From assembly GCA_964597815.1 (NCBI GenBank), contig CAZQZN010000003.1, positions 8,519 to 72,518 on the forward strand: a stretch of 64,000 nt of DNA, read 5' to 3'. The notes beneath the pieces were generated by a model that did no database searches, was not told the DNA's origin, and worked only from the letters and a program-made list of their open reading frames with translations. The position numbers and the translations under genes are program-made. Each line of letters starts with the position of its first letter. Within the stretch, counting starts at the first letter, position 1. Origin of the DNA: an uncultured bacterium (lineage in GTDB: Bacteria; Margulisbacteria; WOR-1; JAKLHX01). This document shows, piece after piece, positions 16,444 through 62,664 of this stretch.

Positions 16444-16472
16444 TTGCAAGCTCAAAATTATTATGATAAAAT
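16444..16472 (+). promoter_or_regulatory. Sigma70 promoter (TTGCAA, 17 nt spacer, TAAAAT) for the EF-G paralogue
   Basis: ttgcaa at 16444-16449 and taaaat at 16467-16472. RBS aggagag and ATG 16502 lie downstream. Confidence 0.45.
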
Positions 16473-16501
16473 TTGCATTAAAAATAAATAGGAGAGGTTC
16501 T

Positions 16502-39221: not shown

Positions 39222-39267
39222 TTTTGCTATTTCAGAATATGGCTGTTTTATAAATCGGAGACATTTA

Positions 39268-41704: not shown

Positions 41705-41717
41705 AAGGAGAAAACTT

Positions 41718-43532: not shown

Positions 43533-43611
43533 TTGAAAAAATATTTTGGTATCGAGAATGAGGTTGTATGGAATAACGATTGTATTTTTATTTTAGTAGG
43601 AAGAAGTAAGT

Positions 43612-45797: not shown

Positions 45798-45807
45798 GAG
45801 TTTAGAA

Positions 45808-46437
45808 ATGTCCAAAATTTTGATTTTTGGAGCGGGAGGGCATGGCAAGGTTGTTTTAGATATTTTGCTTGAATCAGGAGCAGATGTTTTGGGGTTTCTT
45901 GATGATGATATTTCTAAGATTGGTTCTGTTGTTAACGGCAAAAAAATTATTGGAAATTTAGAATATCTAAAAACAAATCGAAATATTGGTTTGGCATTGG
46001 GGTTGGGAAACAATAAAATTAGAGAAAAAGTTTTTAATTTTGCAAGAGAATTAGGAGTTGAAGTTGTAAATGCGATACATCCAAAAGCTGTTGTGTCAAG
46101 AAATGTAAAACTATCAAAAGGTATAGTGATTATGCCCGGTGCAGTAGTGAATACCAATGCTTTTATTGAGGATGGAGTTTGTGTTAATACTTGTGCATCT
46201 GTCGATCATGATTGTTATTTGAAAAAATTTTGTCAGATTTGGCCGGGAGCCAATTTAGCTGGTTCAGTTCAAGTGGGGGGATATTCGTATGTTGGGACCG
46301 GCGCTTCAATTATTCAAAATGTAAAAATTGGCAATAATGTTATTATTGGCGCTGGCGCGGTAGTAATTTCAGATATTCCTGATGGTGTAACAGCTGTTGG
46401 AGTTCCAGCAAGGATAATAAAGGAAAATAATATATGA
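45808..46437 (+). CDS. Hexapeptide-repeat sugar N-acetyltransferase (PglD/NeuD/LegH-like)
   Basis: N-terminal Rossmann-like ILIFGAGGHGKVVLDIL, C-terminal left-handed beta-helix repeats. Confidence 0.8.
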   Translation: MSKILIFGAGGHGKVVLDILLESGADVLGFLDDDISKIGSVVNGKKIIGNLEYLKTNRNIGLALGLGNNKIREKVFNFARELGVEVVNAIHPKAVVSRNVKLSKGIVIMPGAVVNTNAFIEDGVCVNTCASVDHDCYLKKFCQIWPGANLAGSVQVGGYSYVGTGASIIQNVKIGNNVIIGAGAVVISDIPDGVTAVGVPARIIKENNI

Positions 46438-47810: not shown

Positions 47811-49003
47811 AAAAATATTTAAGAAATAAAGACAGAATTCCAGCAATATTTGGTGGCACATCTTTTTTTAACAAAGTCATTCCTATAACTGAACCAACTA
47901 TTTCATCTATTTCTGCTTTAAAGAAGAAATATGAAGAGGTTTTAAGGAGCCGGATGATAACTAATTCTAAATATGTAAAAGAGTTTGAAAAAAATGTTGC
48001 AGAATATCTTGGTGTTAAATACGCAGTAGCAGTAAGCAGCTGTACAAGCGGGTTGATGCTTATAATAAAATCTTTAGAGTTAAAAGGCGAAGTTATACTT
48101 CCAAGTTTTACTTTTCATGCTACTGCTCATTCTGTTGTTTGGAATGGATTAAAACCTATTTTTGTTGATTGTGATCCAAAAACTTATAACATTGATCCAA
48201 AAGAAGTAGAAAAAGCTATAACAAAAAAAACGTCAGCAATTTTAGCAGTTCACCTTTTTGGAAATCCAGCAAATACTGAAGATTTGGAAAGGATCGCTAA
48301 AAAACACAATTTGAAACTTATTTTTGATGCTGCACATGCTTTTGGAGCAAAAAGGAGAGGGAAAAATGTTGGAGGTTTTGGTGACGCGGAATCTTTTAGT
48401 CTTAGCCCAACAAAACTTTTAACATCTGGAGAAGGAGGTATTATTGCAACAAATAATAAGGATTTGGCTGAAAAGTTAAAAGTTGCAAGAAATTATGGTG
48501 ATTCTGGGAATTATGACTGCGAATTTACTGGATTTAACGCAAGGATGAGTGAGTTTAACGCTATTTTGGGAATTGAGACATTAAGAATGTTAGAAAAAAA
48601 CGTAAATAGAAGGAACAAAATTGCAAATATTTATAAAAGCGAATTGTCAAAAATTCCCGGTATTTCTTTCCAATACATTTCACCAAGTGACAGAAGCACA
48701 TTTAAGGATTTTTCGATTTATATTGATGAGAATAAATTTGGAATGACGAGAGATGAATTGTATGATGCGGTTTTAAAGGAGAACATAGTTGTGAAGAAGT
48801 ATTTTTATCCTCCAGTACATTTGCAAAAGGCATATAAAAATATTAAAACATTACATAAATTGGACAATACCGAAAATATAACTAGCAGAGTTTTTAGTTT
48901 GCCTCTATATTCTCATATTGATGAAAAAACAGTAAGAAACATTTGTTTTGTTATCAAAAACATTTACGAATACAACTTGAATATAAAACGACTCAGAAAA
49001 TGA
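47807..49003 (+). CDS. DegT/DnrJ/EryC1/StrS family aminotransferase (LegC/PseC-like)
   Basis: FSLSPTKLLTSGEGG PLP-Lys motif. Confidence 0.8.
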   Translation: MKKYLRNKDRIPAIFGGTSFFNKVIPITEPTISSISALKKKYEEVLRSRMITNSKYVKEFEKNVAEYLGVKYAVAVSSCTSGLMLIIKSLELKGEVILPSFTFHATAHSVVWNGLKPIFVDCDPKTYNIDPKEVEKAITKKTSAILAVHLFGNPANTEDLERIAKKHNLKLIFDAAHAFGAKRRGKNVGGFGDAESFSLSPTKLLTSGEGGIIATNNKDLAEKLKVARNYGDSGNYDCEFTGFNARMSEFNAILGIETLRMLEKNVNRRNKIANIYKSELSKIPGISFQYISPSDRSTFKDFSIYIDENKFGMTRDELYDAVLKENIVVKKYFYPPVHLQKAYKNIKTLHKLDNTENITSRVFSLPLYSHIDEKTVRNICFVIKNIYEYNLNIKRLRK

Positions 49004-50181
49004 ATACTTTTGCTTTTATTATCCAAACTCCTTTTACAAATCGTGATTATAAAAGATTTGGTGTTGATCTGCTATTAAATAGAGGCATATCTGTTGATGT
49101 TTTAGATCTTACCAAATTAATCAATCCAAAATATCTTGATTTGTATAAAGTTGAAGATAAATCACTTTATAAAAACATTTACCAAATTTCATCCGTTGAA
49201 CAATTTGAATCTTATGTAAAAAACAACTCTGAAGTTATTTATATAAATTTTATACATGGCAATCCAAAAACATATTTCGTCTATAGAATTTATAAAAAAT
49301 ACAATTCTGTTTATGCAAGTTTTACAGCAAATGCATTACCTGCCTTTACTAAAATTATCAAAGAGCCGAAGTTAAAAAAAATATCTAAAATTTTTAATTT
49401 TCAAATTCTTAAAGAAATTATTTCCAGCAGATTATTTAAACTTGCTGACAAATTGGAGATTATTCAAAAACCCGCTTTTGTTTTGGCGGGTGGAGATGCA
49501 AAAACTAATTACCTGCCCACTCCCACAAAGAAGAGTAAAATAATCTATGCTCATACACTTGATTACGATCTATATTTGGAATATTTAAGAAAAAATAATT
49601 CAAAAGATAGTTCTCCAAAATATGCTGTATTTCTTGATGAATATCTGCCATTGCATCCGGATTTTATTGTTATTGGGGATAGGTTTAAGCCTTATAAAAA
49701 CAATCCCGAATTATATTTTAATGAGATGCGTTATATATTTGATGCTATTGAAAAAGAAATAAAGATGCCGATTGTTATCGCTGCTCATCCAAGAGCGAAA
49801 TACAAAGATACAGATAAATTTTACGGCGAAAGAGAAATTGTAAATGGGAGAACAATTGAATTGGTTGCAGGTTCGAACATTGTCTTGTTGCATTGTAGTA
49901 CATCAATCAATTTTTCGGTCTTATTCAAAAAACCTATGGTTTTTATTTTGCCAAAAGGGCTTAAAGGCGGTTTTTATGATGATCAAATCAGTGGCTTTTC
50001 CAGATTGTTTGGAGTCAATCCTTATTCTGGCAATAATAGTCCGGAGATTTCAAATTACATTGCTCGCTTTGGAAAAGCGTATGAGGAATACAAGCAAAAA
50101 TATATCAAAACCAAAAATTCTCCAGATAAGTATTTTTGGGAAATTGTAAGCGATGAGATTATTTTGAGAGATAAAAAATGA
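49000..50181 (+). CDS. Hypothetical protein. Possible GT-B-like sialyl/ulosonyl transferase, based only on conserved HP motifs.
   Basis: No recognisable family. LHPDF and AAHPRAKYKD motifs. ATGA-coupled to the preceding aminotransferase. Confidence 0.3.
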   Translation: MNTFAFIIQTPFTNRDYKRFGVDLLLNRGISVDVLDLTKLINPKYLDLYKVEDKSLYKNIYQISSVEQFESYVKNNSEVIYINFIHGNPKTYFVYRIYKKYNSVYASFTANALPAFTKIIKEPKLKKISKIFNFQILKEIISSRLFKLADKLEIIQKPAFVLAGGDAKTNYLPTPTKKSKIIYAHTLDYDLYLEYLRKNNSKDSSPKYAVFLDEYLPLHPDFIVIGDRFKPYKNNPELYFNEMRYIFDAIEKEIKMPIVIAAHPRAKYKDTDKFYGEREIVNGRTIELVAGSNIVLLHCSTSINFSVLFKKPMVFILPKGLKGGFYDDQISGFSRLFGVNPYSGNNSPEISNYIARFGKAYEEYKQKYIKTKNSPDKYFWEIVSDEIILRDKK

Positions 50182-50325: not shown

Positions 50326-51867
50326 ATGCTTAAAAAGGAAGATTCCTTAAAGAAAAGATATTTTTACAAACTTATTACCAATTTTGGTGGTATGCTAATG
50401 GGTTTGATAACTGCGGGAATTACTCCTCGCGCTTTAGGCCCTGTTTCTTATGGCAACTATAGCTATTTAACAAATTTCTTCAATCAAGTTGTTAGTTTCT
50501 TAGAAATGGGAACATCTATCGGCTTTTATTCTAAATTATCGAAAAGGCAGAAAGAATCAGGATTGGTAACGTTCTACATCTATTTTTCTACCATTATCTC
50601 CATTTTAATCATACTATTTGTTTTTATTGCATACAAAACTCGAGTACATAATTTATTTTGGCCTAACCAAAATATGATTTTTGTTATTTTGGCTGCAGTC
50701 TTTGGCCTTCTAACTTGGTTTACCCAGATCCTTAACAAAATAACTGATGCTTATGGGCTAACGGTACATGCAGAAGTTATAAAACTTATTCAGCGCGCTT
50801 TGTCAGTGATGATTTTGTTGTTTTTATATTTTTGGGGGATGTTAAATCTTAGAAACTACTTTTATTTTCAGATATTTATATCGTTACTTTTAATTATAGC
50901 TTTATGGCTATTAAGCAAGCAAAAACATAGTACTATAAATTGGAAACTGAATTTTGCGCAAGTTGTTAATTATATAAAGGAATTTTATGAATATAGCCAT
51001 CCTTTGTTTGTATATGCTTTGATTGGATTAATTGTTGGTATTGTGGATCGTTGGATGCTTCAATATTTTAGCGGCAGTGAACAACAGGGTTTTTATGGAT
51101 TATCTTATACAATTGGATCTTTTTGTTTTCTCTTTACCAGTGCAATGCAACCGCTTTTAATGAGGGAATTTTCTATTTCTCATGGCAATAATGATATATT
51201 AAAAATGAGAATTCTTTTTCGAAAATATATACCGTTGCTTTATTCTATAGCTGCATATTTTTCTTGTTTTATTGCTATTCAGGCAAAAAATGTAATATAT
51301 ATTTTTGGAGGCAATAAATATGCTTCGGCTGTTTTGCCAGTTGCAATAATGGCCTTTTATCCAATTCATCAAACTTATGGCCAACTAAGCGGATCGGTGT
51401 TTTATGCCACTGAACAAACAAGGATATATAGAAACATTGGCACTTTCACTATGGTCATCGGATTAATTGTGAGTTATTTTTTGTTGGCTCCCAAAAATAT
51501 GTTTGGTCTTGAAGCTGGCGCATTTGGTCTTGCGCTAAAAATGGTGATAGTGCAATTCATAGGAGTTAACATTCAGTTGTTTTTTAATGCGAAATATTTA
51601 AACATTTCTTTTTCTAAGTATTTTTTCCATCAGATATTGTCTTTGGTGTTGCTATCATCCATTTCTTTTTTTTCATATTTCTTGATAGAATTTACCAAAC
51701 TTAACTTTTTCAATGTTTTGATAAAGTTTATTTTGTCTGGCATGATATATACAGGAATTGTAATTACGTTTGTGTTTTTTTTGCCAGAAGTGTTTGGGTT
51801 AAATAGAGCTGATGTTGGCTATATATTTGATTTGGTGATAAAAAGAAAGAAAGGAGAAAATAATTAA
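50326..51867 (+). CDS. Polysaccharide/oligosaccharide flippase (Wzx, MOP superfamily)
   Basis: 513 aa, ~12-14 TM helices, typical Wzx hydropathy. Confidence 0.75.
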   Translation: MLKKEDSLKKRYFYKLITNFGGMLMGLITAGITPRALGPVSYGNYSYLTNFFNQVVSFLEMGTSIGFYSKLSKRQKESGLVTFYIYFSTIISILIILFVFIAYKTRVHNLFWPNQNMIFVILAAVFGLLTWFTQILNKITDAYGLTVHAEVIKLIQRALSVMILLFLYFWGMLNLRNYFYFQIFISLLLIIALWLLSKQKHSTINWKLNFAQVVNYIKEFYEYSHPLFVYALIGLIVGIVDRWMLQYFSGSEQQGFYGLSYTIGSFCFLFTSAMQPLLMREFSISHGNNDILKMRILFRKYIPLLYSIAAYFSCFIAIQAKNVIYIFGGNKYASAVLPVAIMAFYPIHQTYGQLSGSVFYATEQTRIYRNIGTFTMVIGLIVSYFLLAPKNMFGLEAGAFGLALKMVIVQFIGVNIQLFFNAKYLNISFSKYFFHQILSLVLLSSISFFSYFLIEFTKLNFFNVLIKFILSGMIYTGIVITFVFFLPEVFGLNRADVGYIFDLVIKRKKGENN

Positions 51868-52625
51868 TGAACAAAATTAAATTGTTTGGTAAGAATTCTA
51901 TTGGAAGCTGGCTACAGATGCCTAACAGATATTCTGCTGAGATTATGGCAAAATCAGGATTTGACTGGCTTGCTATTGATATGGAACATGGATTAATTGA
52001 TGTGCAAAAAGCATTTGAATTGATTCAGGTAGTTGAACTTGCTGGTTCTATTCCTCTTGTGCGATTGAACGAAAATAATCCAAGCTTAATTCGCAGAGTA
52101 ATGGATGCTGGTGCAAAGGGTGTAATAGTGCCGATGGTCAATACAGCTGAAGATGCTCAAAAAGCAGTTGACGCAGTTAAATATCCTCCGGATGGGAAAA
52201 GAAGTTATGGCTTGGGACGTGCCCATGAATTTGGTAAAAATTTTTCTGAATATATCAAAACTATTAATACAGAAAGTATCGTAGTTGTTCAAATAGAACA
52301 TATCAATGCATTTTTAAATCTAGATTCAATATTAGGGGTTAAATCTATTGATGCGATAATCATTGGCCCTTATGACCTTTCGGGCTCTATGGGTATTGCT
52401 GGAAAATTTGATGATGATAAGTTTCAAGAGGCGGTCAATAAAATTATTGAAAAAGTTAAAAAACATAATATTGCTTTGGGGATACATATTGTTCACCCAA
52501 GTCTGGATGATTTAAAACAAAGAGTATCTCAAGGATTTTCTTTTATAGGATTTGGAATGGATACTATATTTTTATCAGATGGGTGTGCAAAAGCAATAAA
52601 AGAATGTAGGAAGATAATAAAATGA
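51867..52625 (+). CDS. HpcH/HpaI family class II (pyruvate/2-oxoacid) aldolase
   Basis: TIM-barrel aldolase family pattern (IGSWLQMP...AEIMAKSGFDWLAIDMEHG, GPYDLS). Confidence 0.7.
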   Translation: MNKIKLFGKNSIGSWLQMPNRYSAEIMAKSGFDWLAIDMEHGLIDVQKAFELIQVVELAGSIPLVRLNENNPSLIRRVMDAGAKGVIVPMVNTAEDAQKAVDAVKYPPDGKRSYGLGRAHEFGKNFSEYIKTINTESIVVVQIEHINAFLNLDSILGVKSIDAIIIGPYDLSGSMGIAGKFDDDKFQEAVNKIIEKVKKHNIALGIHIVHPSLDDLKQRVSQGFSFIGFGMDTIFLSDGCAKAIKECRKIIK

Positions 52626-53611
52626 AAATTTATGACCTAATGAGCCCGAAAGAAGAATATTATAAAGTTCTTAAACAAAGAGAAATAGATGGTATTGCTT
52701 TTTATGAGAAATACCATAAAGATTTTGTTTTAACAAATTGTCCCGCCTGTGGTGAAGGTGGCATTAATTCATTCGAAAAGTATGGTTTTGAACATAAAAC
52801 ATGCAAAAATTGCAAGACTCTATTTGTTTCGCCAAGACCAACAGATGAAATACTTTCCATTTATTACAATGAATATTCTGCACCTAAAATGTGGACTGAA
52901 TTATTGTTAAAAACCGATGTGCAAAGGAAAGCAATGCAATATTTGCCCAGAGTAGAAATGATAATTAATAGGATTAGAAATCTTGGAATTAATAAAATGG
53001 AAAGAGTTGTTGATCTTGGTGCTGGTTCGGGCGCTTTTTCAATCTGCTTGCAAAAATCAGGTTTTTTTGATGAAGTAATTGCTATTGATCTTTCTGAAGA
53101 GTGTGTTAAGGCTTGTCAATCCCAAGGATTAAAAACAATCCTTGGCTCTGTGGAAAATATTGAAGATGAATCGATAGATTTAATTTGCATGAATGATTTA
53201 TTTGAACATCTTTTTGATTGTTCCAAAATGCTTAGTGGGTGTTTTCGTGCGCTTAAAAAAAATGGGTTTATTTCAATTGCAACTCCAAATGGGGAGGGTT
53301 TTGATTTCAAAATAATGAAAAAGAATACAGTTAATATTACTCCACCAGAACATTTAAACTATTTTAATCCTATTTCAATGGAGATTTCTCTATCTAAAGC
53401 AGGATTTATGCCAATTTTGGTTGAAACCCCCGGCAAACTTGATGTTGAAATTGTATTGAGAGAGAAATTTTCTGGTTTTTCTTTATCGGAAAGAAACGAA
53501 TATATAAATTATCTATTAGAACAAGAAGAGCAAGTCATAAACAATTTTCAAGAATTTCTTTCTAAAAACAAACTTTCAAGCCATATGTTTGCAATGGCTC
53601 AAAAGAAATGA
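52622..53611 (+). CDS. Class I SAM-dependent methyltransferase with N-terminal Cys4 zinc ribbon (paralogue A)
   Basis: CPACGEG...CKNCKTLFVSPRP, SAM motif VVDLGAGSGAF, C-terminal SSHMFAMAQKK. Confidence 0.65.
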   Translation: MKIYDLMSPKEEYYKVLKQREIDGIAFYEKYHKDFVLTNCPACGEGGINSFEKYGFEHKTCKNCKTLFVSPRPTDEILSIYYNEYSAPKMWTELLLKTDVQRKAMQYLPRVEMIINRIRNLGINKMERVVDLGAGSGAFSICLQKSGFFDEVIAIDLSEECVKACQSQGLKTILGSVENIEDESIDLICMNDLFEHLFDCSKMLSGCFRALKKNGFISIATPNGEGFDFKIMKKNTVNITPPEHLNYFNPISMEISLSKAGFMPILVETPGKLDVEIVLREKFSGFSLSERNEYINYLLEQEEQVINNFQEFLSKNKLSSHMFAMAQKK

Positions 53612-53627
53612 AAAGAGGAGAAGAAAA

Positions 53628-54404
53628 ATGAAAATAATCGGTATTATTCCTGCGCGTATGGCTTCAAGTAGATTTCCGGGGAAACCATTAGCAAAGATAT
53701 TTGGAATACCTATGATCGGCCATGTTTATTTTAGAAGCAAAATGTGCAAGTTGCTAGATGAAGTATATATTGCAACCTGCGATAAAGAAATTGTTGAATA
53801 CTGTAATTTTATTGGTGCAAAATCTGTAATGACCAAGGACACTCATGAGAGGGCATCTGATAGGACTGCTGAAGCAATGCTAATTATAGAAAAAGAAATT
53901 GGGGAAAAAATAGATATAGTGGTTATGATTCAAGGTGATGAACCTTTGATCTATCCCGAAATGATTAGTGAAGCAGTTAGACCGCTAATTAAAGATGTAC
54001 AAGTCTTGGTCTCAAATCTAATGGCTCCTATAACAAAGGAGGAACAGGACGACCCTAATGAGGTAAAAGTGGTATTTGACAGAAATGATTATGCCCTATA
54101 TTTTTCAAGGGAACCGATACCTTCATGGAAAAAAGGTGCGAAAGAAGTCCCAATGTATAAACAAATTTGCATTATTCCTTTTAGGAGGGATTTTCTTTTG
54201 AAATTTAATGAGCTTATGCCTACTCCGCTTGAAATAGTAGAATCTATCGATATGCTTAGGATATTAGAACATGGTTATAAAGTAAAACTTGTTAGGACCA
54301 ATTTTCTAACTTACAGTGTGGATACTTTACAGGATTTGATGGATGTTGAAGAATTGATGAAAAATGATAATCTTTTTGAAAAATATAAAGGCCAAAACAA
54401 ATGA
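53628..54404 (+). CDS. CMP-ulosonate synthetase of the KdsB (CMP-Kdo synthetase) family
   Basis: MKIIGIIPARMASSRFPGKPLAKIFGIPMI and the QGDEPL motif. RBS agaggag. Confidence 0.75.
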   Translation: MKIIGIIPARMASSRFPGKPLAKIFGIPMIGHVYFRSKMCKLLDEVYIATCDKEIVEYCNFIGAKSVMTKDTHERASDRTAEAMLIIEKEIGEKIDIVVMIQGDEPLIYPEMISEAVRPLIKDVQVLVSNLMAPITKEEQDDPNEVKVVFDRNDYALYFSREPIPSWKKGAKEVPMYKQICIIPFRRDFLLKFNELMPTPLEIVESIDMLRILEHGYKVKLVRTNFLTYSVDTLQDLMDVEELMKNDNLFEKYKGQNK

Positions 54405-55384
54405 AAGAAGAAGAAATAAGAAAGCGCAAAATATTTAACAAATATCTTGAACTAGTTAAAGAAGACATTGATATGCTTTTTAAAGAAAAGAGCTTATTTG
54501 AAGAAATATCATGTCCAGCATGTGAGTCAAAAGAATATTTATTTCAATTTGAAAAATATGGGTTTAAATATGTGCTTTGCAATAAATGTGGTACTTTGTT
54601 TGTTAATCCAAGACCTACATTAAAATCCCTTACAGATTTTTATTCTTCTTCAAAATCAGGAGATTTTTGGGTGAAAGAATTTTTTCTTCCTGTGATAGAT
54701 GTGCGCAGGGAAAAAATATTTAAACCTAGAGCTGAATTAGTTTGTAATAAACTAAAAGAACCTAGTGGTTATGTGTGTGATGTTGGAGCAGGATTTGGAA
54801 TATTTCTTGAAGAGATTTCAAAATTATGGACAAACGCAAAAATGGTGGCAATTGAACCATCCATCCAAATGGCCGAAATATGCAGAGAAAAAGGTTTTGA
54901 AGTAATACCAAAAGCAGTTGAAGATGTTATAGGTTTGGATGGCAAATTTTCAATAATAACAGCGTTTGAACTTTTTGAACATCTTCAAAATCCAAGTGTA
55001 TTTCTTGAAAAGATATATTCTCTGCTTTCTAAAGATGGTAGTTTGATTATATCAACACTTAATGGAGAAGGTTTTGATATACAAATACTTTGGGAAAGCT
55101 CAAAAAGTGTGTTCCCTCCTCATCATCTAAATTTTTTAAACCCAGATTCCATTAGAATATTACTAGAGAGAAAAGGTTTTGTTGTAGAATCAATAACAAC
55201 TCCTGGACAACTTGATTGGGATATTGTAGAAGGTGCTTATCAAAAGGACGGAATTGATCCGGGAAGATTATGGAAATTAGTATCAAAAAAGGGAAGCAAA
55301 CAGGCAAAAGAAAAACTTCAAGAATGGATATCTCAAAATAATTTTAGTTCACATATGATGATATTTGCAAGAAAGGGAATATAG
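54401..55384 (+). CDS. Class I SAM-dependent methyltransferase with N-terminal Cys4 zinc ribbon (paralogue B)
   Basis: CPACESKEY...CNKCGTLFVNPRP, SAM motif VCDVGAGFGIF, C-terminal SSHMMIFARKG. Confidence 0.65.
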   Translation: MKEEEIRKRKIFNKYLELVKEDIDMLFKEKSLFEEISCPACESKEYLFQFEKYGFKYVLCNKCGTLFVNPRPTLKSLTDFYSSSKSGDFWVKEFFLPVIDVRREKIFKPRAELVCNKLKEPSGYVCDVGAGFGIFLEEISKLWTNAKMVAIEPSIQMAEICREKGFEVIPKAVEDVIGLDGKFSIITAFELFEHLQNPSVFLEKIYSLLSKDGSLIISTLNGEGFDIQILWESSKSVFPPHHLNFLNPDSIRILLERKGFVVESITTPGQLDWDIVEGAYQKDGIDPGRLWKLVSKKGSKQAKEKLQEWISQNNFSSHMMIFARKGI

Positions 55385-55385
55385 A

Positions 55386-56288
55386 ATGAAAGTTTTTATT
55401 TCTACAACTACATTTGCACAATATGATGAATTGCCATTGCAATTATTGATGGAAAAAGGGATCGAGTATCAAATAAATCCTTTACACAAAAAACTTACAA
55501 AAGAAGAATTATTATCTTTTGCAGCTAATGTGGAAGGACTCATTGCTGGCACTGAATCTCTATCTTATGATGTTTTGAAAGAATTAAAAAACTTAAAAGT
55601 CATTTCAAGATGTGGCACGGGGCTTGACAATGTTGATCTTAAAAGTGCTGATAAACTTGGTATTAAAGTTTTTAACACACCAGATGCGCCCACAGATGCA
55701 GTTGCGGAATTAACATTAGGATTAATGCTTGATTGCTTGCGTTTTATATCGAAAGCAGATCGCAACATTAGATCTGGTGCATGGGTTAAGCCAATGGGGA
55801 ATCTGCTGAAAGATAAAATAGTTGGTATAATTGGATATGGAAGGATAGGTAAAGCAGTTGCAAAATTGGTGCAATCTTTTGGTGCCAAGATAATAGTGTT
55901 TGATATAGCAAAAAATTCTGATGGTAAACTATTTGTTTCTTTTGACCAACTATTGAAAAGTTCTGATATTATAACGTTGCATATTCCAGCAATTGATAAA
56001 AAAATACTTATTGATGATAATGCTATTTCAAATATGAAACAAGGTTCTTTTTTGATCAATACTTCGAGAGGAGGCCTCGTTGACGAAGATGCGCTTTATA
56101 ATGCACTTAAAACAGGTAAATTGGCAGGAGCAGGAATAGATACTTTTAACCAAGAACCTTATAAGGGAAAACTTGTTGAAATTGAAAATGTGGTTTTGAC
56201 ATCACATATTGGTTCTTATGCAAAGGAGTCAAGAATAGAAATGGAAAAACAAGCGGTTAAAAATTTGCTTAAAGGATTGGGGGTATAA
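55386..56288 (+). CDS. D-isomer-specific 2-hydroxyacid dehydrogenase (PGDH/GDH-like)
   Basis: NAD motif GIIGYGRIGKAV, catalytic R...E...H region. Confidence 0.8.
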   Translation: MKVFISTTTFAQYDELPLQLLMEKGIEYQINPLHKKLTKEELLSFAANVEGLIAGTESLSYDVLKELKNLKVISRCGTGLDNVDLKSADKLGIKVFNTPDAPTDAVAELTLGLMLDCLRFISKADRNIRSGAWVKPMGNLLKDKIVGIIGYGRIGKAVAKLVQSFGAKIIVFDIAKNSDGKLFVSFDQLLKSSDIITLHIPAIDKKILIDDNAISNMKQGSFLINTSRGGLVDEDALYNALKTGKLAGAGIDTFNQEPYKGKLVEIENVVLTSHIGSYAKESRIEMEKQAVKNLLKGLGV

Positions 56289-56291
56289 AAA

Positions 56292-57158
56292 ATGAATATA
56301 ATTGTTTTTGGTGGAGCTGGATTTTTGGGTAGTCATGTAGCAGATGCATTGTCAGAAAAAGGTCATAATGTTACAGTTTTTGACCTTGTAAAATCCCCTT
56401 ATTTAAAAAGCAATCAATCCTGTATTATTGGAGATATAACAGATTTTGATTTTGTCAGAAAAGCGATTAATGGGCAAGACATAGTATATAACTTTGCGGG
56501 AATTGCGGATATGGATGTTGCCAAATCAAATCCTCTTAACACAGTCAAAACTAATATTTATGGGAATGCAGTTCTTCTTGAAGCCAGCAGATTGGCGAAA
56601 ATCAAACGTTTTATATTTGCGAGTACTCTTTATGTTTATAGCAAAGCGGGCTCTTTTTATCGCAGTAGCAAACAGGCAAGCGAATTGTTGATTGAAAATT
56701 ATCATGATGTTTATAATCTTGATTTTACAATATTAAGATATGGTTCTCTTTATGGGCCAAGAGCTAACGAAAGCAATTGGATTTATAAAGTAATAAAACA
56801 GGCATTGAATGAACGTAAAATAATAAGACATGGCGATGGAGAAGAATTGCGTGAATATATTCATGTCTTAGATGCTGCAAGATTAAGTGTGGATATTTTA
56901 TCTGAAGAATATAAAAACCAATATGTTGTGATATCTGGACACCAACAAATGAAAATAAAGGATTTAATGATTATGATAAAAGAAATACTTAACAATAAAA
57001 TCGAATTAGAATTTCTACCCGTAGATTCAAATGAACATTATGAAATTACTCCTTATGTTTTTTGTCCGAAGATTGCAAAGAAAATACAAAGCAATAATTT
57101 TATTGATTTAGGGCAGGGGATGCTTGATCTAATTACACAAATATATCACGAAAAATGA
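56292..57158 (+). CDS. NAD-dependent epimerase/dehydratase (SDR)
   Basis: FGGAGFLGSH and YRSSK (YxxxK). Confidence 0.8.
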   Translation: MNIIVFGGAGFLGSHVADALSEKGHNVTVFDLVKSPYLKSNQSCIIGDITDFDFVRKAINGQDIVYNFAGIADMDVAKSNPLNTVKTNIYGNAVLLEASRLAKIKRFIFASTLYVYSKAGSFYRSSKQASELLIENYHDVYNLDFTILRYGSLYGPRANESNWIYKVIKQALNERKIIRHGDGEELREYIHVLDAARLSVDILSEEYKNQYVVISGHQQMKIKDLMIMIKEILNNKIELEFLPVDSNEHYEITPYVFCPKIAKKIQSNNFIDLGQGMLDLITQIYHEK

Positions 57159-57805
57159 AAAAAACTAAAGCAATTATATTTGATTTTGATGGTGTTATTG
57201 CTGAATCAATGGATATTAAAGCAAAAGGCTTTGCCTTTTTATTCAAGGATTATCCTGAATATGTTGATGAAATCGTAAAATTTCATCTTGCTCATGGAGG
57301 AATGGGGCGAATCTCAAAATTTGAATACATTTATGCAAATTTTTTAAACAAACCACTTTCTGAAGAAGAAAAAGTAAAACTCAGTGAGCAATTTAGTGAT
57401 TTTGTTTTTAATGAGATTCTCAAATGTCCGCTTGTAAAAGGTGCAAAAGAATTTTTAGAAAAATACTATAAGGATTTTGATATGTTTGTGGTATCAGGCA
57501 CTCCGGATGAAGAAATAAAAAAAATTGTTTTAGAAAGAGGTCTTGAAAAATATTTTGTTGGAATATTTGGTTCCCCAAAGAAAAAAGAACAAATCAACAG
57601 GGAATTGCTCGATAAATATGGTTATTTGCCTCAGGAAGTTGTTTTCATTGGGGATTCTATAGACGATTACATTGGAGTAAAAGATCTCGGCATTAGGTTT
57701 ATAGGTAGAGTACAAAAGGATGATCCATTTAAGGGACTTGATATTGAGGGAAGAATTAAAGATATAACTGAACTAGAAAGAGTTTTGGGAATAAAAAATG
57801 TTTAA
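57155..57805 (+). CDS. HAD-IA family hydrolase/phosphatase
   Basis: Motif I IIFDFDGVI, motif IV GDSIDD. Confidence 0.75.
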   Translation: MKKTKAIIFDFDGVIAESMDIKAKGFAFLFKDYPEYVDEIVKFHLAHGGMGRISKFEYIYANFLNKPLSEEEKVKLSEQFSDFVFNEILKCPLVKGAKEFLEKYYKDFDMFVVSGTPDEEIKKIVLERGLEKYFVGIFGSPKKKEQINRELLDKYGYLPQEVVFIGDSIDDYIGVKDLGIRFIGRVQKDDPFKGLDIEGRIKDITELERVLGIKNV

Positions 57806-58451
57806 ATTGTTATCATATCCTTTAAGTGAAAAAACGCCTTTATATGGGGAAACAAAATCTGTTATTGTTGAAGCTGAAAAACAAATAAGCAAAGGTGATT
57901 CTTGCAACACATTTTATTTGAAATTTTCAAATCACAGCGGGACACATATTGATTCTCCAAACCATTTTTATGAAAATGGACGGTCACTTTCACAATATAG
58001 CATTGAGGAATTCATTTTCACGAAGCCGTTTTTGCTTGATATTGAGATAGGAGAAGGGCAGCTTATTACGTCAAAATTTTTGAAAAACATTCCAACATGT
58101 GATTTGCTTTTGATTAGAAGCGGCTTTTATAAATATCGTAATTTGGAAAAATACAAATTCAATAATCCGGGTATATCAGTTGAAGCTGCGAAAACTATAA
58201 GAGAAAACTATCCTGATATCAGAGCTATTGGAGTTGATTTTATTTCAATTAGTTCTTATTCTCACAGAGAAGAAGGGCGTCAATCTCATAGGATTTTGCT
58301 TGATCCCTGTTATCATAAAAACAGTCCGATTTTATTAATAGAAGATATGAATTTATCGGATGATCTTGCAGGGTTAAAAAAAGTTTTTGCTGTGCCAATT
58401 TTTTTTGAAGGAGTAGATAGTATGCCTTGCACCGTAATAGGGGAGTTATAA
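57798..58451 (+). CDS. Putative cyclase family protein (kynurenine formamidase-like fold)
   Basis: HSGTHIDSPNHF metal-binding motif. Confidence 0.6.
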   Translation: MFKLLSYPLSEKTPLYGETKSVIVEAEKQISKGDSCNTFYLKFSNHSGTHIDSPNHFYENGRSLSQYSIEEFIFTKPFLLDIEIGEGQLITSKFLKNIPTCDLLLIRSGFYKYRNLEKYKFNNPGISVEAAKTIRENYPDIRAIGVDFISISSYSHREEGRQSHRILLDPCYHKNSPILLIEDMNLSDDLAGLKKVFAVPIFFEGVDSMPCTVIGEL

Positions 58452-60224
58452 ATGAAACTTGTTGTGGATACGCCTGAAAGGATTGTTAATATAGCAGAAA
58501 AATTTTCTGAAAGAGATGATTGGGACTGGTGTTATTTTGGAATTGAAATGGATAGAAAGAATCATTTTTTTTTGAAAATGTCAGCGGGTAAAAAGCACCA
58601 CTATGCAAAAGAACTCAATTCAATAGCGCACAATCTAAAAACACCATTTTTAGATTGGATTTCACGATTGAATATGGGTCGCTGTGAAGATGTAATTTGG
58701 TGGAGCAAACAGTTACCATCAAAATCAGTGTGTCAGACGGATTTCTTCTTATTTGTCTGTTATTTTAATTTGGCAAAGAAATGGTTAACTACAAACCAAT
58801 TCGAAAGAACAAGATTAATTGCCGTTGAAGATCCTTTTCTGCTTAAAATGCTAAAAGATTCATTTGGAGTTTCAGAAAAGAACAGAATAGCTGAGAAAAT
58901 TTTAATAAAAAAATTTGTGATTTCTATATTCAAGTTTTTTTTTATTAGAATTTTGTTTTTATCAAAATATATAACGCTTATTTTTTTTGATAAACTGCGA
59001 AAAATAACCAACTTTAGAAAATATCATGATATGGTTAGATTCAAACCAGACATTTTGATTTATACATGGGTCGAAGAAAGATGTTTTAAAAACAAATCTT
59101 TTCAAGATGTATATTTTAATGATTTGGCGTCTTTATATTCGAGGAATGGATATAAGACCATGCTAGCGGTGCCAGTTTGGTTGTCAGCGCGCTTAAAGAA
59201 GCGCATACTTGATTCAAATGTGCATGTGGTTATATCGAGTTATTTTCTTAGTATTTTAGATTGTTTGAAAACCGTTTTAACTATTCCTCCTACTTATCCT
59301 AATGGTAATAAAAAAATTTTTTTTGGCGATGATTATACTTTATTATTTTCGAGGGAATATTTGCTTGAAATAACTTCAATGGCATTTTTAACAAACTTGT
59401 TGGAATATTATGCTTATTTGAATTATTTTAATAGTGCGAAAAAGATAAAATTACTTATTTACCCTTTTGAAAATCAACCTTGGGAAAAAATGTTGATTTT
59501 ATCATCGAGAAAATCTCGTGCAGTAAAAAAAATAGTTGCTTATCAACACTCCTCAATTCCAAGCTTGCTTTTAAATTATTTTATTGGCAAAGAGGAAGGA
59601 GCGCACATGCCTTTGCCTGATCAAATAATTGCTAATGGTGAATATCATAAAAAACTATTTTTTGCCTCAAATTACGAGGGGGTGGATATAGAAAATGGTG
59701 GTTCGTTAAGATATAAAGAAGTCCTCAAATTTGAGAATAAAAATGTTGTTTTATCTTCTAAAAAGAGAATATTGGTTCTGCTGCCAGGTGTATTATCGCG
59801 GGCAATGGAAATATTATACAGCATCAAAAGATTCAAGCAAAGAGATGATTATGAGATCTTAATTCGTTTACATCCAGACTTGCCTGTGGATAAAATAAAA
59901 CAATTAATTATTGATATTGGCGAAAAAGTAAAGATTGACGAGACAAAAAATCTTTATGAAGTATTGTCTCAGACGTCAGCAGTTGTCCATGCTGGCACGA
60001 CTGCAGCACTGGAAGCATATTATAAGGGATTAAAGGTGTTCAAATTCATGACAGAGCTAATTGATTTAGATATTTTGTCTGATTTGGGACTCGATCAAGA
60101 GGAAATAGAAGATTTTTCAGAAATTAGCTTCGAAAGACAAGTGCTATCTCACAAGGAAATAACCAATATTTTAGTAGAACCCGTAAAGGAAAAAGTATGG
60201 CTTTCATTAATTCAAAAAGAATAA
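58452..60224 (+). CDS. Hypothetical 590 aa protein. Possible GT-B / KpsC-KpsS-like ulosonic-acid transferase, based on an HP motif only.
   Basis: No recognisable family. IRLHPDLP motif in the C-terminal half. Confidence 0.3.
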   Translation: MKLVVDTPERIVNIAEKFSERDDWDWCYFGIEMDRKNHFFLKMSAGKKHHYAKELNSIAHNLKTPFLDWISRLNMGRCEDVIWWSKQLPSKSVCQTDFFLFVCYFNLAKKWLTTNQFERTRLIAVEDPFLLKMLKDSFGVSEKNRIAEKILIKKFVISIFKFFFIRILFLSKYITLIFFDKLRKITNFRKYHDMVRFKPDILIYTWVEERCFKNKSFQDVYFNDLASLYSRNGYKTMLAVPVWLSARLKKRILDSNVHVVISSYFLSILDCLKTVLTIPPTYPNGNKKIFFGDDYTLLFSREYLLEITSMAFLTNLLEYYAYLNYFNSAKKIKLLIYPFENQPWEKMLILSSRKSRAVKKIVAYQHSSIPSLLLNYFIGKEEGAHMPLPDQIIANGEYHKKLFFASNYEGVDIENGGSLRYKEVLKFENKNVVLSSKKRILVLLPGVLSRAMEILYSIKRFKQRDDYEILIRLHPDLPVDKIKQLIIDIGEKVKIDETKNLYEVLSQTSAVVHAGTTAALEAYYKGLKVFKFMTELIDLDILSDLGLDQEEIEDFSEISFERQVLSHKEITNILVEPVKEKVWLSLIQKE

Positions 60225-61522
60225 TTGATGCCTTCAGATACATATTGAGTCCTTATCAATTTGGTTTTGTAGTGGGGCATTATTATCTTGATAAAACCAA
60301 AATTGAAGAAGTAAAAGATATATTGTTTTCTAGTTCGAATGAAAAATTGCGACAAGACTATGAAAGAAAATTGGCTGGGCTTATTGGTGATGGCTATGTT
60401 GTTAGCTTTGCTGCTGGGCGAATGGCATTCTACACTCTGCTCAAAGTTTTGAAAATTGGTTATGGTGATGAGGTACTTATGACCGGTTTTACTTGTTCTG
60501 TTATGGTAAACGCTGTTTTGAGAGTAGGGGCAAAGCCGATATTTGCCGATATTGATCCTGAAAACTTTGGACCAGATCCTTACGATCTGGAAATGAAAAT
60601 AACTCCTCATACCAAGGTTATAGTTGCCCAGCATTCTTTTGGCATACCATGTAACATATTAGCTATTTCAAAATTGGCAAAAGAAAAAAATATTTTTCTT
60701 GTTGAAGACAGCGCAATTACGCTGGATTCCAGTTTTAACGGGGTTAAAACTGGAAATTGGGGTGATGCTGCTATCTTTTCTTCTGATCATTCCAAACCGA
60801 TTAATACATTGATTGGTGGCTATCTCTATACTAGAAATCAACGACTTTATCAAGCAATTTTAAATGCTTCTGTTGATTTGCCTGAATTGGACCATAATCA
60901 TAAAGTTCGGCTTTTTAATAGATTATTATATGAAAAAATTTTTTTTAATCCTAAAAACTATAAATGGGATAAAATATTTGACGTTTACAATTTAATAACT
61001 AGAAAAATTTTTGGACGCAAAAATGAACTTGTTTTTCTCGAGGATGATTATGATCGTCCGATTTCTGCTAATTATCACTATCCTGCTAAATTGCCATCTT
61101 TCTTAGCTAAGGTTGGAATGTTTGAGTTGGATCGTTGGAGTGATGAAAAAAATATACGGAAAAATATTTTGAAAAGATATTTGGAAGTGATAAAGGAGAC
61201 AAAATACGCTGAAACTATTCCGAAGGCTTATTTAGACGCTAATCTTGAAATTACACCTTTACGATTTGTTTTTTGTACTCCTGATGCAAAGGGATTGAGC
61301 AAGCAAATGGCTTCTTTGGTAGATATCAATTGGACATGGTTTAAATACCCGATAATCTGTTGTTCAAAAGGTCCAGAAACTATGGGATATGTTCCCGGAA
61401 GTTGTCCTAATGCTGAAAAGGCTGGGAAAATGATTATTAACTGGCCATGTGTTGTTGCTCGAGGATGGGAAAATAAATTGATTTCTGAGTTTGATAGAAT
61501 AATAAAAGGAGATCATATATGA
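60197..61522 (+). CDS. Divergent DegT/AHBA-synthase-fold PLP enzyme with N-terminal extension
   Basis: FSSDHSKPI PLP-Lys motif, FAAGRMAFY...GDEVLMTGFTC. 441 aa. Confidence 0.6.
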   Translation: MAFINSKRIIDAFRYILSPYQFGFVVGHYYLDKTKIEEVKDILFSSSNEKLRQDYERKLAGLIGDGYVVSFAAGRMAFYTLLKVLKIGYGDEVLMTGFTCSVMVNAVLRVGAKPIFADIDPENFGPDPYDLEMKITPHTKVIVAQHSFGIPCNILAISKLAKEKNIFLVEDSAITLDSSFNGVKTGNWGDAAIFSSDHSKPINTLIGGYLYTRNQRLYQAILNASVDLPELDHNHKVRLFNRLLYEKIFFNPKNYKWDKIFDVYNLITRKIFGRKNELVFLEDDYDRPISANYHYPAKLPSFLAKVGMFELDRWSDEKNIRKNILKRYLEVIKETKYAETIPKAYLDANLEITPLRFVFCTPDAKGLSKQMASLVDINWTWFKYPIICCSKGPETMGYVPGSCPNAEKAGKMIINWPCVVARGWENKLISEFDRIIKGDHI

Positions 61523-62664
61523 TACCAGTATCACGTCCTTCAATTGGAAAAGAGGAATTAATGGCAGTAGAAAAGGTTTTTCAAACCGGTTGGCTTGGAT
61601 TAGGTTCTTTTGTTTTTGATTTTGAAAATATGATCAAGGAATATCTCCCAGCAAAAAATGTCATTGCTGTCAATACAGGGACAACTGCTTTACATATTGC
61701 TCTTGATGCACTTGGAATTGGCCATGGCGATGAGGTGATTGTCCCATCACTTACCTTTGCTGCTTCTGTTCAAGCCATTACTCAAACTGGTGCTTCTCCT
61801 GTATTTTGTGAAGTAAACGAGTTTGATTTGAATATTGATGTATCGGATGTTAAAAAAAGAATTACTAAAAGAACTAAAGCAATATTGCCAGTCCATTACT
61901 GTGGCAAATCTTGTGATATGGATTCATTAATGGAATTAGCTGATAAGAACGGAATAAAAATTGTTGAAGATGCTGCTCATGCATTTGGATCAAGCTATAA
62001 AGGCAAAAAAATAGGGAGTTTTGGTCACATAACCTGTTTTAGTTTTGATCCGATCAAAAATATTACAACAGGGGAAGGTGGTGCGGTTGTAGTGGGTGAT
62101 GACGAATTGGCTGAAAAAATACGAAGAAAAAGGATCCTTGGTATAGATAAGGATACTTGGTACAGATATCAAAACAAGCGGTCTTGGTTTTATGAGGTGC
62201 TGGAACAAGGGTATCGCTATCACATGAGCAATATAAATGCTGCTATTGGTATTGAGCAGTTCAAAAAACTAGATCGATTTATTTTAAGAAAAAGAGAAAT
62301 TACTAAAAGATATGATCAGGCTTTTTCAGAATTAGATGGCGTCAAAATTTTGGAAAATGATTATAATGAAACGGCTCAATTTTGTTACATAATTAGGGTA
62401 CTTAATAACAAAAGAGACCTCTTGATGGATTATCTAAAGGATAAAGGAATAGGTTCAGGAGTGCATTACATACCTAATCATTTACAACCTTTTTTTAAAA
62501 CTTATCATGTAAAACTTCCGATAACAGAAAAAATTTCTGAGGAGATACTGACTTTGCCGTTATATTACGATATGACAGATTATAATGTAGAATCGGTAAT
62601 TAATTCAGTTAGGAGTTTTTTCATTAATAATAGAGATATTAAATACAGAATTATGAATGCTTGA
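61519..62664 (+). CDS. DegT/DnrJ/EryC1/StrS family aminotransferase
   Basis: FSFDPIKNITTGEGG PLP-Lys motif. Confidence 0.8.
   Translation: MIPVSRPSIGKEELMAVEKVFQTGWLGLGSFVFDFENMIKEYLPAKNVIAVNTGTTALHIALDALGIGHGDEVIVPSLTFAASVQAITQTGASPVFCEVNEFDLNIDVSDVKKRITKRTKAILPVHYCGKSCDMDSLMELADKNGIKIVEDAAHAFGSSYKGKKIGSFGHITCFSFDPIKNITTGEGGAVVVGDDELAEKIRRKRILGIDKDTWYRYQNKRSWFYEVLEQGYRYHMSNINAAIGIEQFKKLDRFILRKREITKRYDQAFSELDGVKILENDYNETAQFCYIIRVLNNKRDLLMDYLKDKGIGSGVHYIPNHLQPFFKTYHVKLPITEKISEEILTLPLYYDMTDYNVESVINSVRSFFINNRDIKYRIMNA

Follow-up and report, generated by a model that had tools for sequence, protein, structure and literature searches.

A Widespread Gene Cassette with a Proposed Aldolase Route to CMP-Activated Ulosonic Acids

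Eight co-directional open reading frames (ORFs) were analyzed at positions 51867-58451 of a 64,000-nucleotide stretch of DNA, here called the window, from an uncultured bacterium (Margulisbacteria, WOR-1; contig CAZQZN010000003.1 of assembly GCA_964597815.1). The block encodes an HpcH/HpaI-family aldolase, a cytidylyltransferase resembling KdsB, a D-2-hydroxyacid dehydrogenase, an extended short-chain dehydrogenase/reductase (SDR), a HAD phosphatase, a PF04199 "cyclase", and two methyltransferases. It is best explained as one copy of a widespread cassette that would make a 2-ulosonic acid activated with cytidine monophosphate (CMP) and attach it to a glycan of the cell surface, in which the HpcH aldolase replaces KdsA or NeuB. 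We place the probability of this reading at about 0.55. An aldolase-made, CMP-activated ulosonic acid had been suggested in an initial annotation of the sequence, and that part is supported by the gene neighborhoods (37 of 37, as described below), whereas the pyruvate donor and the 3-deoxy product that went with it are now in doubt. The aldol donor may differ from pyruvate because a dedicated dehydrogenase is a core member of the cassette, and the product may differ from a 3-deoxy acid.

Recurrence and Core Composition of the Cassette

Relatives of the aldolase were collected in a scan of one genome per species. The scan returned 595 relatives, and the best 80 of these, with identities of 43-66%, were examined. 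These 80 span more than 20 phyla. The archaeal carriers among them are Methanoregula, Methanoperedens, Thermoplasmatales, Woesearchaeota, and Micrarchaeota; those from the candidate phyla radiation (CPR) are Saccharibacteria and Moranbacteria; and the others are Dehalococcoidia, Planctomycetota (including Brocadiaceae), Desulfobacterota, Nitrospirota, and Ignavibacteria. The single isolate is Syntrophomonas wolfei subsp. methylbutyratica. [quoted passage not shown] Aldolase homologues at 60-69% identity were found in metagenome-assembled genomes (MAGs) of Methanoregula, Saganbacteria, Omnitrophota, Margulisiibacteriota, and others.

In Methanoregula, Saganbacteria, and Thermodesulfobacteriota, close homologues of the aldolase are surrounded by this set of genes. 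All of the neighborhoods that were read contain genes for a methyltransferase, a CTP_transf_3 protein, a 2-Hacid_dh protein, an extended SDR, a HAD protein, a protein of ~570-660 residues with no Pfam domain, and a flippase. The cyclase is usual, and some neighborhoods carry a gene for a 441-residue DegT-like protein or a B12-radical-SAM gene instead.

Partners of the aldolase were counted by clustering all ORFs of the fetched loci; the counts cover the 37 loci in which the aldolase gene is flanked by 8 kb or more on each side. A CTP_transf_3 gene is present in all 37, with a KdsB-like one in 31 and a NeuA-like one in 18, and one example of the NeuA-like type was assigned to CTP_transf_3 by Pfam. 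The 2-hydroxyacid dehydrogenase is found in 31 of the 37 loci and a phosphatase in 24 (HAD in 19, IMPase family in 5). An extended SDR occurs in 18, a methyltransferase in 13, a cyclase in 12, and NeuB within 8 kb of the aldolase in 9. The constant core consists of the aldolase, the 2-hydroxyacid dehydrogenase, and the CMP-transferase, and the remaining genes vary. Conservation of the gene neighborhood, which had been put forward with the initial annotation as a check, is borne out by the recurrence of the cassette and by the CTP_transf_3 gene beside the aldolase in every well-flanked locus.

Some cassettes are compact, with an order such as [cyclase][NeuA-like][aldolase][2-hydroxyacid dehydrogenase][HAD][SDR], and no NeuB gene occurs anywhere in those loci. 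The cassettes of Methanoregula, Methanoperedens, Ignavibacteria, and Planctomycetia have no nonulosonic-acid genes within 10 kb. In a second flavor of the cassette (loci L024, L027, L060, L075, and others), the aldolase and dehydrogenase genes are retained along with that for the CTP_transf_3 protein. The SDR and HAD genes are replaced in this flavor by genes for SIS_2, GFO/MocA, IMPase, and DHQ-synthase-like proteins and a classical SDR, and B12-radical-SAM and FkbM methyltransferase genes are often present. The second flavor probably makes a different member of the same class of sugars.

A published description of this gene set was not found in the literature searched, in agreement with the earlier statement that no described pathway with this gene complement was known to its author. 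The papers on the nonulosonic acids of Tannerella and Leptospira make no mention of such genes, and no informative names occur among the cluster members of the cassette proteins.

The Aldolase

Domains were assigned with the Pfam and NCBIfam models and their curated cutoffs, and some motifs were read directly from the sequence. All eight domain assignments of the initial annotation were reproduced in this way, and the ORFs lie exactly where it had placed them. The aldolase scores below the NCBIfam equivalog cutoffs for HpaI (196.4 vs 368.8), GarL (164.8 vs 406.75), and RhmA (162 vs 441). Among proteins of solved structure, HpaI and YfaU are its nearest relatives (E about 1e-43). Residues H41, R66, E144, and D170 are invariant in 24 members of the clade and align with those of HpaI; they match the metal-binding Asp/Glu and the Arg and His for which roles have been named in the HpcH family (PMC7610986). 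The donors reported for enzymes of this family are pyruvate, hydroxypyruvate, and 2-oxobutyrate, and the acceptors are small aldehydes, namely glycolaldehyde, glyceraldehyde, lactaldehyde, erythrose, and ribose (PMC7610986).

The genomic context of the clade consists of glycan clusters rather than operons for the catabolism of aromatic compounds or sugar acids, with a cytidylyltransferase gene in each of the 37 loci. Because of its cytidylyltransferase and dehydrogenase partners across these loci, the aldolase is judged not to be a generic catabolic enzyme. A generic aldolase conserved outside of glycan loci, which had been named as the finding that would speak against the initial proposal, was not what the neighborhoods contained. 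The aldolase is proposed to be the synthase of the sugar acid.

The KdsB-like Cytidylyltransferase

The cytidylyltransferase passes two KdsB subfamily models, NF009905 (301.8 vs 255) and NF003952 (276.3 vs 193). It falls just short of the equivalog TIGR00466 (155.1 vs 155.2) and below NF003948 (182.6 vs 281). The nearest solved relative is the K-CKS enzyme of Escherichia coli (1GQ9, E 8e-39). The cytidylyltransferases encoded next to the aldolases are mostly 57-78% identical across phyla, and a second group is 41-54% identical. The motifs for CTP and Mg binding (IPARxxSxRFPGKPL, QGDEP, YFSRxPIP, and SVDT) are kept throughout the clade.

Two other motifs, both in the C-terminal domain, are substituted in every member of the clade: the canonical H-[VL]-G-I-Y of KdsB is KQ-V-C-I-I, and the canonical E-x-L-E-Q-L-R is E-S-V-D-M-L-R. 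We take the residues of these two motifs to be ones that contact Kdo in the structures of the E. coli enzymes. The C-terminal domain of KdsB has been reported to be responsible for the binding of Kdo (PMC3149649).

Only canonical kdsB genes were found in plasmid records, with no more than 41% identity to the protein of the window. Because of this comparison and the spread of the clade in organisms that lack LPS, the gene is judged not to be a housekeeping kdsB. The finding that had been named as a refutation of the initial proposal, a sole housekeeping kdsB, is contradicted by the occurrence of the clade in those lineages, and kdsA, kdsC, and kdsD were not found among the annotated ORFs of the window. 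The enzyme is proposed to activate a sugar acid with CMP.

Three large plasmids of Streptomyces (NZ_CP109451.1, NZ_CP108746.1, and NZ_CP107922.1) carry genes annotated as kdsB that are 37-39% identical to the protein of the window. Such genes are unexpected for Gram-positive bacteria, and they may belong to natural-product or glycan clusters.

The Dehydrogenase, the SDR, and the Phosphatase

The nearest solved relative of the dehydrogenase is the short phosphoglycerate dehydrogenase 1WWK (E 8e-56). The score against the phosphoglycerate dehydrogenase equivalog TIGR01327 is below the cutoff (236 vs 454). The Arg, Glu, and His residues of the enzyme align with conserved residues of phosphoglycerate dehydrogenases. 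The VRS motif of 1WWK and human PHGDH, which presumably binds the phosphate of 3-phosphoglycerate, is replaced by IAG[TVL]E across the clade. 3-Phosphoglycerate was considered as the substrate on account of the nearest relatives, and this candidate was weakened by the replaced motif. Because of that replacement, the substrate is probably not 3-phosphoglycerate.

The dehydrogenase gene is often contiguous with that of the aldolase. The enzyme would make the aldol donor, for example, hydroxypyruvate from D-glycerate, since it is as constant a partner as the cytidylyltransferase; this is the weakest part of the model. Reduction of the aldol product by the dehydrogenase is less likely, because the anomeric center needed for a KdsB-type reaction would be lost.

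The nearest solved relatives of the SDR are UDP-sugar 4-epimerases. Its sequence contains the GxxGxxG and YxxxK motifs, and the acidic pair of the dehydratase type is absent. The phosphatase carries the DxD motif in FDFDG. An extended SDR occurs together with the HAD phosphatase in roughly half the cassettes, and an IMPase-family phosphatase takes the place of the HAD enzyme in five loci of the second flavor. In the initial annotation, the dehydrogenase, phosphatase, and SDR were offered as a separate pathway to a substituent. That assignment does not agree with the standing of the dehydrogenase as a core partner in 31 of the 37 loci, nor with the joint occurrence of the SDR and HAD genes in about half.

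The 590-Residue Protein and the Flippase

The protein of 590 residues encoded directly after the block has ~100 homologues, each of roughly 600 residues and all unannotated. Against TIGR04326 it scores 84.3 vs 250, and only in its C-terminal half, as a distant relative and not a member. An AlphaFold2 model made with 38 sequences has a mean predicted local distance difference test score (pLDDT) of 91, and a Foldseek search with this model returned GT-B glycosyltransferases and 2-epimerases with E values of about 1e-6. When the family profile was searched against the sequences of the PDB, one family was matched, KpsC, a CMP-beta-Kdo transferase (E 0.035). The alignment is limited to ~75 residues and places KpHPD on KVHPD of KpsC and EAllsGiPV on EALLAGKPV. 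Residues H474 and P475, which lie in KpHPD, are invariant in the 590-residue family, and E521 and G526 are nearly so; the match, marginal in its statistics, thus falls on the invariant positions. The family profile matches proteins in 28 of the fetched loci, which include both flavors of the cassette. The protein is proposed to be the transferase for the CMP-activated sugar.

In a metagenomic protein of 816 residues (P0166), a HAD-IA phosphatase domain is naturally fused to a member of the 590-residue GT-B family. The fusion hints at a coupling of dephosphorylation and transfer, perhaps on the same intermediate. Among the 1.84 billion representatives searched, the close clade had no fusions that were informative; a KdsC-like fusion was present at 46% identity only, and PRD and CTP_transf_like fusions were also present.

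Homologues of the flippase, at 41-54% identity, lie directly 5' of the aldolase in loci L019, L045, L047, L054, L072, L081, and L082. A 412-residue protein encoded at positions 48943-50181 has no Pfam or NCBIfam match, and homologues with 28-36% identity occur in cassette loci L015, L045, L067, L081, and L082. The homologue in L045 is directly 5' of the flippase. The 412-residue protein may be a second transferase.

Tailoring Genes

Both methyltransferases carry zinc ribbons of the CxxC...CxxC type, CPACG...CKNC in the first (MT1) and CPACE...CNKC in the second, with weak matches to Zn_ribbon models. The two are 33% identical, and no close solved relative of MT1 was found. The metal motif HxGTHxDxPxH of the cyclase is intact (HSGTHIDSPNH), and its score against the arylformamidase equivalog is below the cutoff (49 vs 223). 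A candidate lysine for pyridoxal phosphate (PLP) can be read in the SSDHSKP segment of the 441-residue DegT-like protein. Homologues of this protein with 45-46% identity occupy the same slot in cassettes of Methanoregula and Prolixibacteraceae, and a B12-radical-SAM gene occupies that slot in other Methanoregula loci.

The methyltransferases and the cyclase appear to be optional tailoring enzymes, and the DegT-like protein appears to be an occasional accessory. Both flanking methyltransferases are confirmed as S-adenosylmethionine (SAM) methyltransferases, and methylation of the sugar by them, as first envisaged, would be an optional step, with a methyltransferase in 13 of the 37 loci.

Proposed Pathway

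In the proposed pathway, the dehydrogenase would supply or condition the 2-oxoacid donor, and the favored guess is the conversion of D-glycerate or a similar 2-hydroxyacid to hydroxypyruvate. Alternatively, plain pyruvate could serve as the donor, in which case the dehydrogenase would have its role elsewhere. A sugar phosphate or nucleotide sugar would be turned into the aldehyde acceptor by the HAD phosphatase and the SDR, unless these two enzymes trim the product instead. The aldolase would then join the donor and the acceptor to give a 4-hydroxy-2-oxo acid that cyclizes to the hemiketal, and the KdsB-like enzyme would link the anomeric hydroxyl group to CMP. At the locus in the window, the sugar would undergo lineage-specific tailoring by the DegT-like enzyme, the PF04199 hydrolase, and both zinc-ribbon methyltransferases. 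From CMP, the sugar would be passed to an acceptor by the 590-residue GT-B protein, and the lipid-linked unit would be exported by the Wzx flippase. We infer the order of these steps, which compounds serve as donor and acceptor, which sugar is formed, the tailoring roles, and the glycosidic linkage to CMP.

A broader reading can be offered tentatively, and we hold it to be somewhat less probable than the cassette assignment itself. The cassette would represent a third route to CMP-ulosonic acids in Bacteria and Archaea, comprising a non-pyruvate donor such as hydroxypyruvate made by a dedicated D-2-hydroxyacid dehydrogenase, a class II HpcH aldolase that joins it to an aldehyde derived from a sugar, a specialized activating enzyme of the KdsB or NeuA type, and a new family of GT-B transferases related to KpsC. 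The product of such a route, as part of the same tentative reading, would be a 3-hydroxylated or otherwise new keto-sugar acid. Methanogens, CPR bacteria, Dehalococcoidia, anammox bacteria, and others would then bear a whole class of surface sugars that glycan chemistry has yet to detect.

Several points weigh against the assignment of the cassette to a CMP-ulosonic acid. We know of no glycan from any of the carrier organisms. Many cassettes adjoin NeuA/B/C genes, so that a link to nonulosonic acids may exist. A simple scheme with pyruvate and an aldose leaves the constant dehydrogenase unexplained. Enzymes of the D-2-hydroxyacid dehydrogenase type work on C2 of carboxylic acids, and reduction of the aldol product at this position would preclude a KdsB-type reaction. 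The absence of the VRS motif makes a route from 3-phosphoglycerate doubtful. The similarity of the 590-residue protein to KpsC is marginal (E 0.035).

To our knowledge, all ulosonic acids with a known biosynthesis (Kdo, Kdn, and the sialic, legionaminic, and pseudaminic acids) are made via the phosphoenolpyruvate (PEP)-dependent synthases KdsA or NeuB. If the assignment is correct, the cassette would be a new entry point to ulosonic acids and, most likely, to new sugars. A large family of "hypothetical" proteins of roughly 600 residues would gain a function as CMP-sugar transferases. In mostly uncultured lineages such as methanogens, Patescibacteria, Dehalococcoidia, Brocadiaceae, and Omnitrophota, the cassette would also mark genomes that encode acidic surface glycans of an unusual kind.

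Alternative Explanations

The cassette could instead make a hydroxy-acid N-acyl substituent for a nearby legionaminic or pseudaminic acid rather than a sugar donor, which we consider unlikely. In such a scheme, a 2-keto-3-deoxy-hexonate formed by the aldolase would be reduced at C2 by the dehydrogenase and then O-methylated by a methyltransferase. The flagellin pseudaminic acid of Treponema denticola carries a 2-methoxy-4,5,6-trihydroxy-hexanoyl acyl group (PMC13439194) that would be the exact product expected from these three reactions, and a precedent is provided by the CMP-linked nonulosonic acids of Campylobacter jejuni with 2,3-di-O-methylglyceroyl groups (bioRxiv 10.64898/2026.04.20.719630). 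The dehydrogenase is given a natural role by this scheme, and NeuA/B/C genes lie within 10 kb in the window and at many other loci. The substituent is ranked below the main reading because the cassette does not depend on NeuB and invariably includes a cytidylyltransferase. Just nine of the 37 loci have NeuB within 8 kb, several cassettes have no nonulosonic-acid genes within 10 kb, and the scheme has no role for the cytidylyltransferase, the most constant partner (37 of 37). An acyl-activating enzyme, an acyl carrier protein, and an N-acyltransferase are missing from the core, and most cassettes have no methyltransferases. The T. denticola group resembles the expected output of the cassette in its carbon skeleton and 2-O-methyl group, both within reach of an aldolase acting with a 2-oxoacid reductase and a methyltransferase, but it is amide-linked and needs no cytidylyltransferase.

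Surface tailoring commonly involves the activation of non-sugar phosphates by cytidylyl transfer. The KdsB-like enzyme could make a non-glycosidic CMP or CDP conjugate of a small acid, such as a derivative of glycerate or of a phospho-hydroxyacid, to be transferred by the 590-residue protein as a phosphodiester substituent, as in teichoic-acid-like or phospho-amino-acid decorations. The phosphatase and the dehydrogenase related to phosphoglycerate dehydrogenases point to phosphorylated three-carbon acids, and a fusion of HAD to the 590-residue family is known. We nevertheless regard this conjugate as improbable: the cytidylyltransferase belongs to the CTP_transf_3 family of KdsB and NeuA and not to the LicC, PntC, or TagD types, and its place is taken elsewhere by a NeuA-like protein that is also of this family. 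The 590-residue protein matches no glycerophosphotransferase family, and its sole likeness at the sequence level is to a CMP-Kdo transferase. The dehydrogenase is without the VRS motif that we assume to bind phosphate, and the aldolase would be left without a role. It is far less probable still that a housekeeping kdsB for the Kdo of LPS lies by chance beside a catabolic aldolase and unrelated redox and phosphatase genes. The cytidylyltransferase does clear the cutoff of an NCBIfam KdsB subfamily, and the SurA-like and PBP1 proteins of the window indicate that the organism may be diderm. The gene set recurs, however, in more than 20 phyla that include archaea, CPR bacteria, Dehalococcoidia, and Syntrophomonas; the C-terminal domain of the cytidylyltransferase has clade-specific substitutions; the aldolase is far under every catabolic equivalog cutoff; the genes overlap in a single operon with the flippase and the transferase; and no kdsA, kdsC, kdsD, or lpx gene is found among the annotated ORFs of the window.

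Comparison with Known Systems

The cassette resembles the Kdo pathway (KdsD, KdsA, KdsC, and KdsB) in its combination of a synthase that forms a C-C bond, a HAD-type phosphatase, and a CTP_transf_3 enzyme that is clearly homologous to KdsB (E 8e-39 to 1GQ9), and the second flavor adds an isomerase with a SIS domain. It differs in that the synthase is a metal-dependent 2-oxoacid aldolase and not the PEP-dependent KdsA, the phosphatase is of the HAD-IA type and not of the KdsC type, and the motifs in the C-terminal domain of the cytidylyltransferase are changed. The cassette also has the extra D-2-hydroxyacid dehydrogenase and occurs in organisms without LPS.

The nonulosonic-acid pathways (NeuC/LegG, NeuB/LegI/PseI, and NeuA/LegF/PseF) likewise deliver a CMP-activated acidic keto-sugar for surface glycans, often from shared clusters, and about a third of the cassettes use a NeuA-like instead of a KdsB-like activating enzyme. 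Unlike these pathways, the cassette has no synthase of the NeuB type. The catabolic HpcH/HpaI aldolases (HpaI, GarL, and RhmA/YfaU) share the fold, the metal ligands, and the catalytic Arg and His with the cassette aldolase, whereas the latter scores roughly half of each equivalog cutoff, has a biosynthetic context, and is proposed to act in the direction of synthesis.

In its modeled structure, the 590-residue protein resembles KpsC and KpsS (GT107) and the bacterial sialyltransferases with an HP motif through its GT-B fold, and the C-terminal motifs K-x-H-P-D and E-A-L-x-x-G-x-P-V align with KpsC at marginal significance (E 0.035), so that a place among the GT107/GT99 beta-Kdo transferases is no more than possible. 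It differs from KpsC and KpsS by ~300 extra N-terminal residues without detectable relatives. A motif of the QxxxKD type is not evident in the consensus of the 590-residue family alignment.

Gene Content of the Locus

The features of the locus are listed in Table 1. The ORFs of the block are mostly separated by gaps of <20 bases or overlap by 1-8 bases. Because the flippase, the 590-residue protein, and the DegT-like protein recur with the block in other genomes, the functional unit is judged to be wider than the block and to extend over positions 50326-61522. The G+C content of the block (0.30-0.33) is no different from that of the remaining window, and promoter- or terminator-like sites are not above their frequency in shuffled sequence.

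Table 1. Features of the proposed functional unit, in window coordinates
Feature	Position	Strand	Supporting data
Wzx-type flippase	50326..51867	+	Pfam Polysacc_synt, 49.6 bits; stop overlaps aldolase start
Class II HpcH/HpaI-family 2-oxoacid aldolase	51867..52625	+	Pfam HpcH_HpaI, 133.3 bits vs cutoff 25
SAM methyltransferase 1 (MT1), N-terminal zinc ribbon	52622..53611	+	Pfam Methyltransf_11/23/31
KdsB-like cytidylyltransferase	53628..54404 (ORF from 53589)	+	CTP_transf_3, 158 bits; 258 residues on record
SAM methyltransferase 2, MT1 paralogue, zinc ribbon	54401..55384	+	Pfam Methyltransf_23, 78.8 bits
D-2-Hydroxyacid dehydrogenase	55365..56288 (likely start ATG 55386)	+	2-Hacid_dh and 2-Hacid_dh_C, 171.7 bits
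Extended SDR, nucleotide-sugar epimerase/oxidoreductase type	56292..57158	+	Pfam Epimerase, 143 bits
HAD-IA phosphatase	57155..57805	+	HAD_2, 58 bits
PF04199 "cyclase", kynurenine-formamidase-like metal hydrolase	57798..58451	+	Pfam Cyclase, 83.9 bits vs 23.1
590-residue protein, GT-B fold	58452..60224	+	Predicted structure; no Pfam domain
441-residue DegT-like PLP enzyme	60197..61522	+	N-terminal half alone matches DegT-family aminotransferases

Surroundings in the Window

The block lies inside a co-directional surface-glycan cluster of ~30 kb, at about 33.9-63.8 kb of the window. The cluster begins with an SDR gene, a GT2-like gene, the GDP-heptose genes HddA, HddC, GmhA, and GmhB, and a transaldolase gene. 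These are followed by genes for a flavin adenine dinucleotide (FAD) oxidoreductase, an Fe-alcohol dehydrogenase, and a DegT aminotransferase, and then by a NeuA/NeuB/NeuC/NeuD-like set with a CBS-SDR and a further DegT gene. The cluster ends with the 412-residue protein, the Wzx flippase, the block, the 590-residue protein, two DegT-like genes, and a GT2 gene. The NeuA/B/C/D-like set is complete and separate from the block, at positions 42891-46437. Together with the CBS-SDR and DegT genes, it looks like a pathway of the legionaminic type. Since the nonulosonic-acid set and the GDP-heptose genes are encoded apart from the cassette, the glycan of this cluster would bear at least two different CMP-derived acids.

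The transaldolase and the FAD oxidoreductase (positions 38502-40371) lie between the GDP-heptose and the nonulosonic-acid genes, and the latter enzyme resembles glycerol-3-phosphate oxidase and L-2-hydroxyglutarate oxidase. The Fe-alcohol dehydrogenase, the DegT aminotransferase, and the NeuA-like cytidylyltransferase form a trio at positions 40547-43532. The same trio is found in a MAG of Thermoplasmatales (L062, 2466-6413) with identities of 43, 58, and 65%, respectively, and a single methyltransferase-like gene interrupts it there. The trio is reminiscent of the KdnB/KdnA logic of Kdo8N, in which a terminal alcohol is oxidized and then transaminated, and it may put an extra amino group on the nonulosonic acid.

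Two neighboring genes of the DegT family lie 3' of the cassette at positions 60197-62664. The second of these encodes a full PseC/ArnB-like aminotransferase of 381 residues, and its homologues, at 54-66% identity, are found downstream of the cassettes in L038, L054, and L059.

The first 33 kb of the window contain housekeeping genes, among them those for GAPDH, PGK, NDK, H+-PPase, citrate synthase, SHMT, FtsEX, and the SurA-like and PBP1 proteins. An EF-G-like gene in this part is split across three overlapping ORFs at positions 16463-18580. The ORF at 16463-17842 encodes the GTPase domain, domain 2, and domain III; the ORF at 17763-18140 encodes the first half of domain IV; and the ORF at 18083-18580 encodes the remainder of domain IV and EFG_C. 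The two frameshifts imply a pseudogene or an error in the assembly of the MAG.

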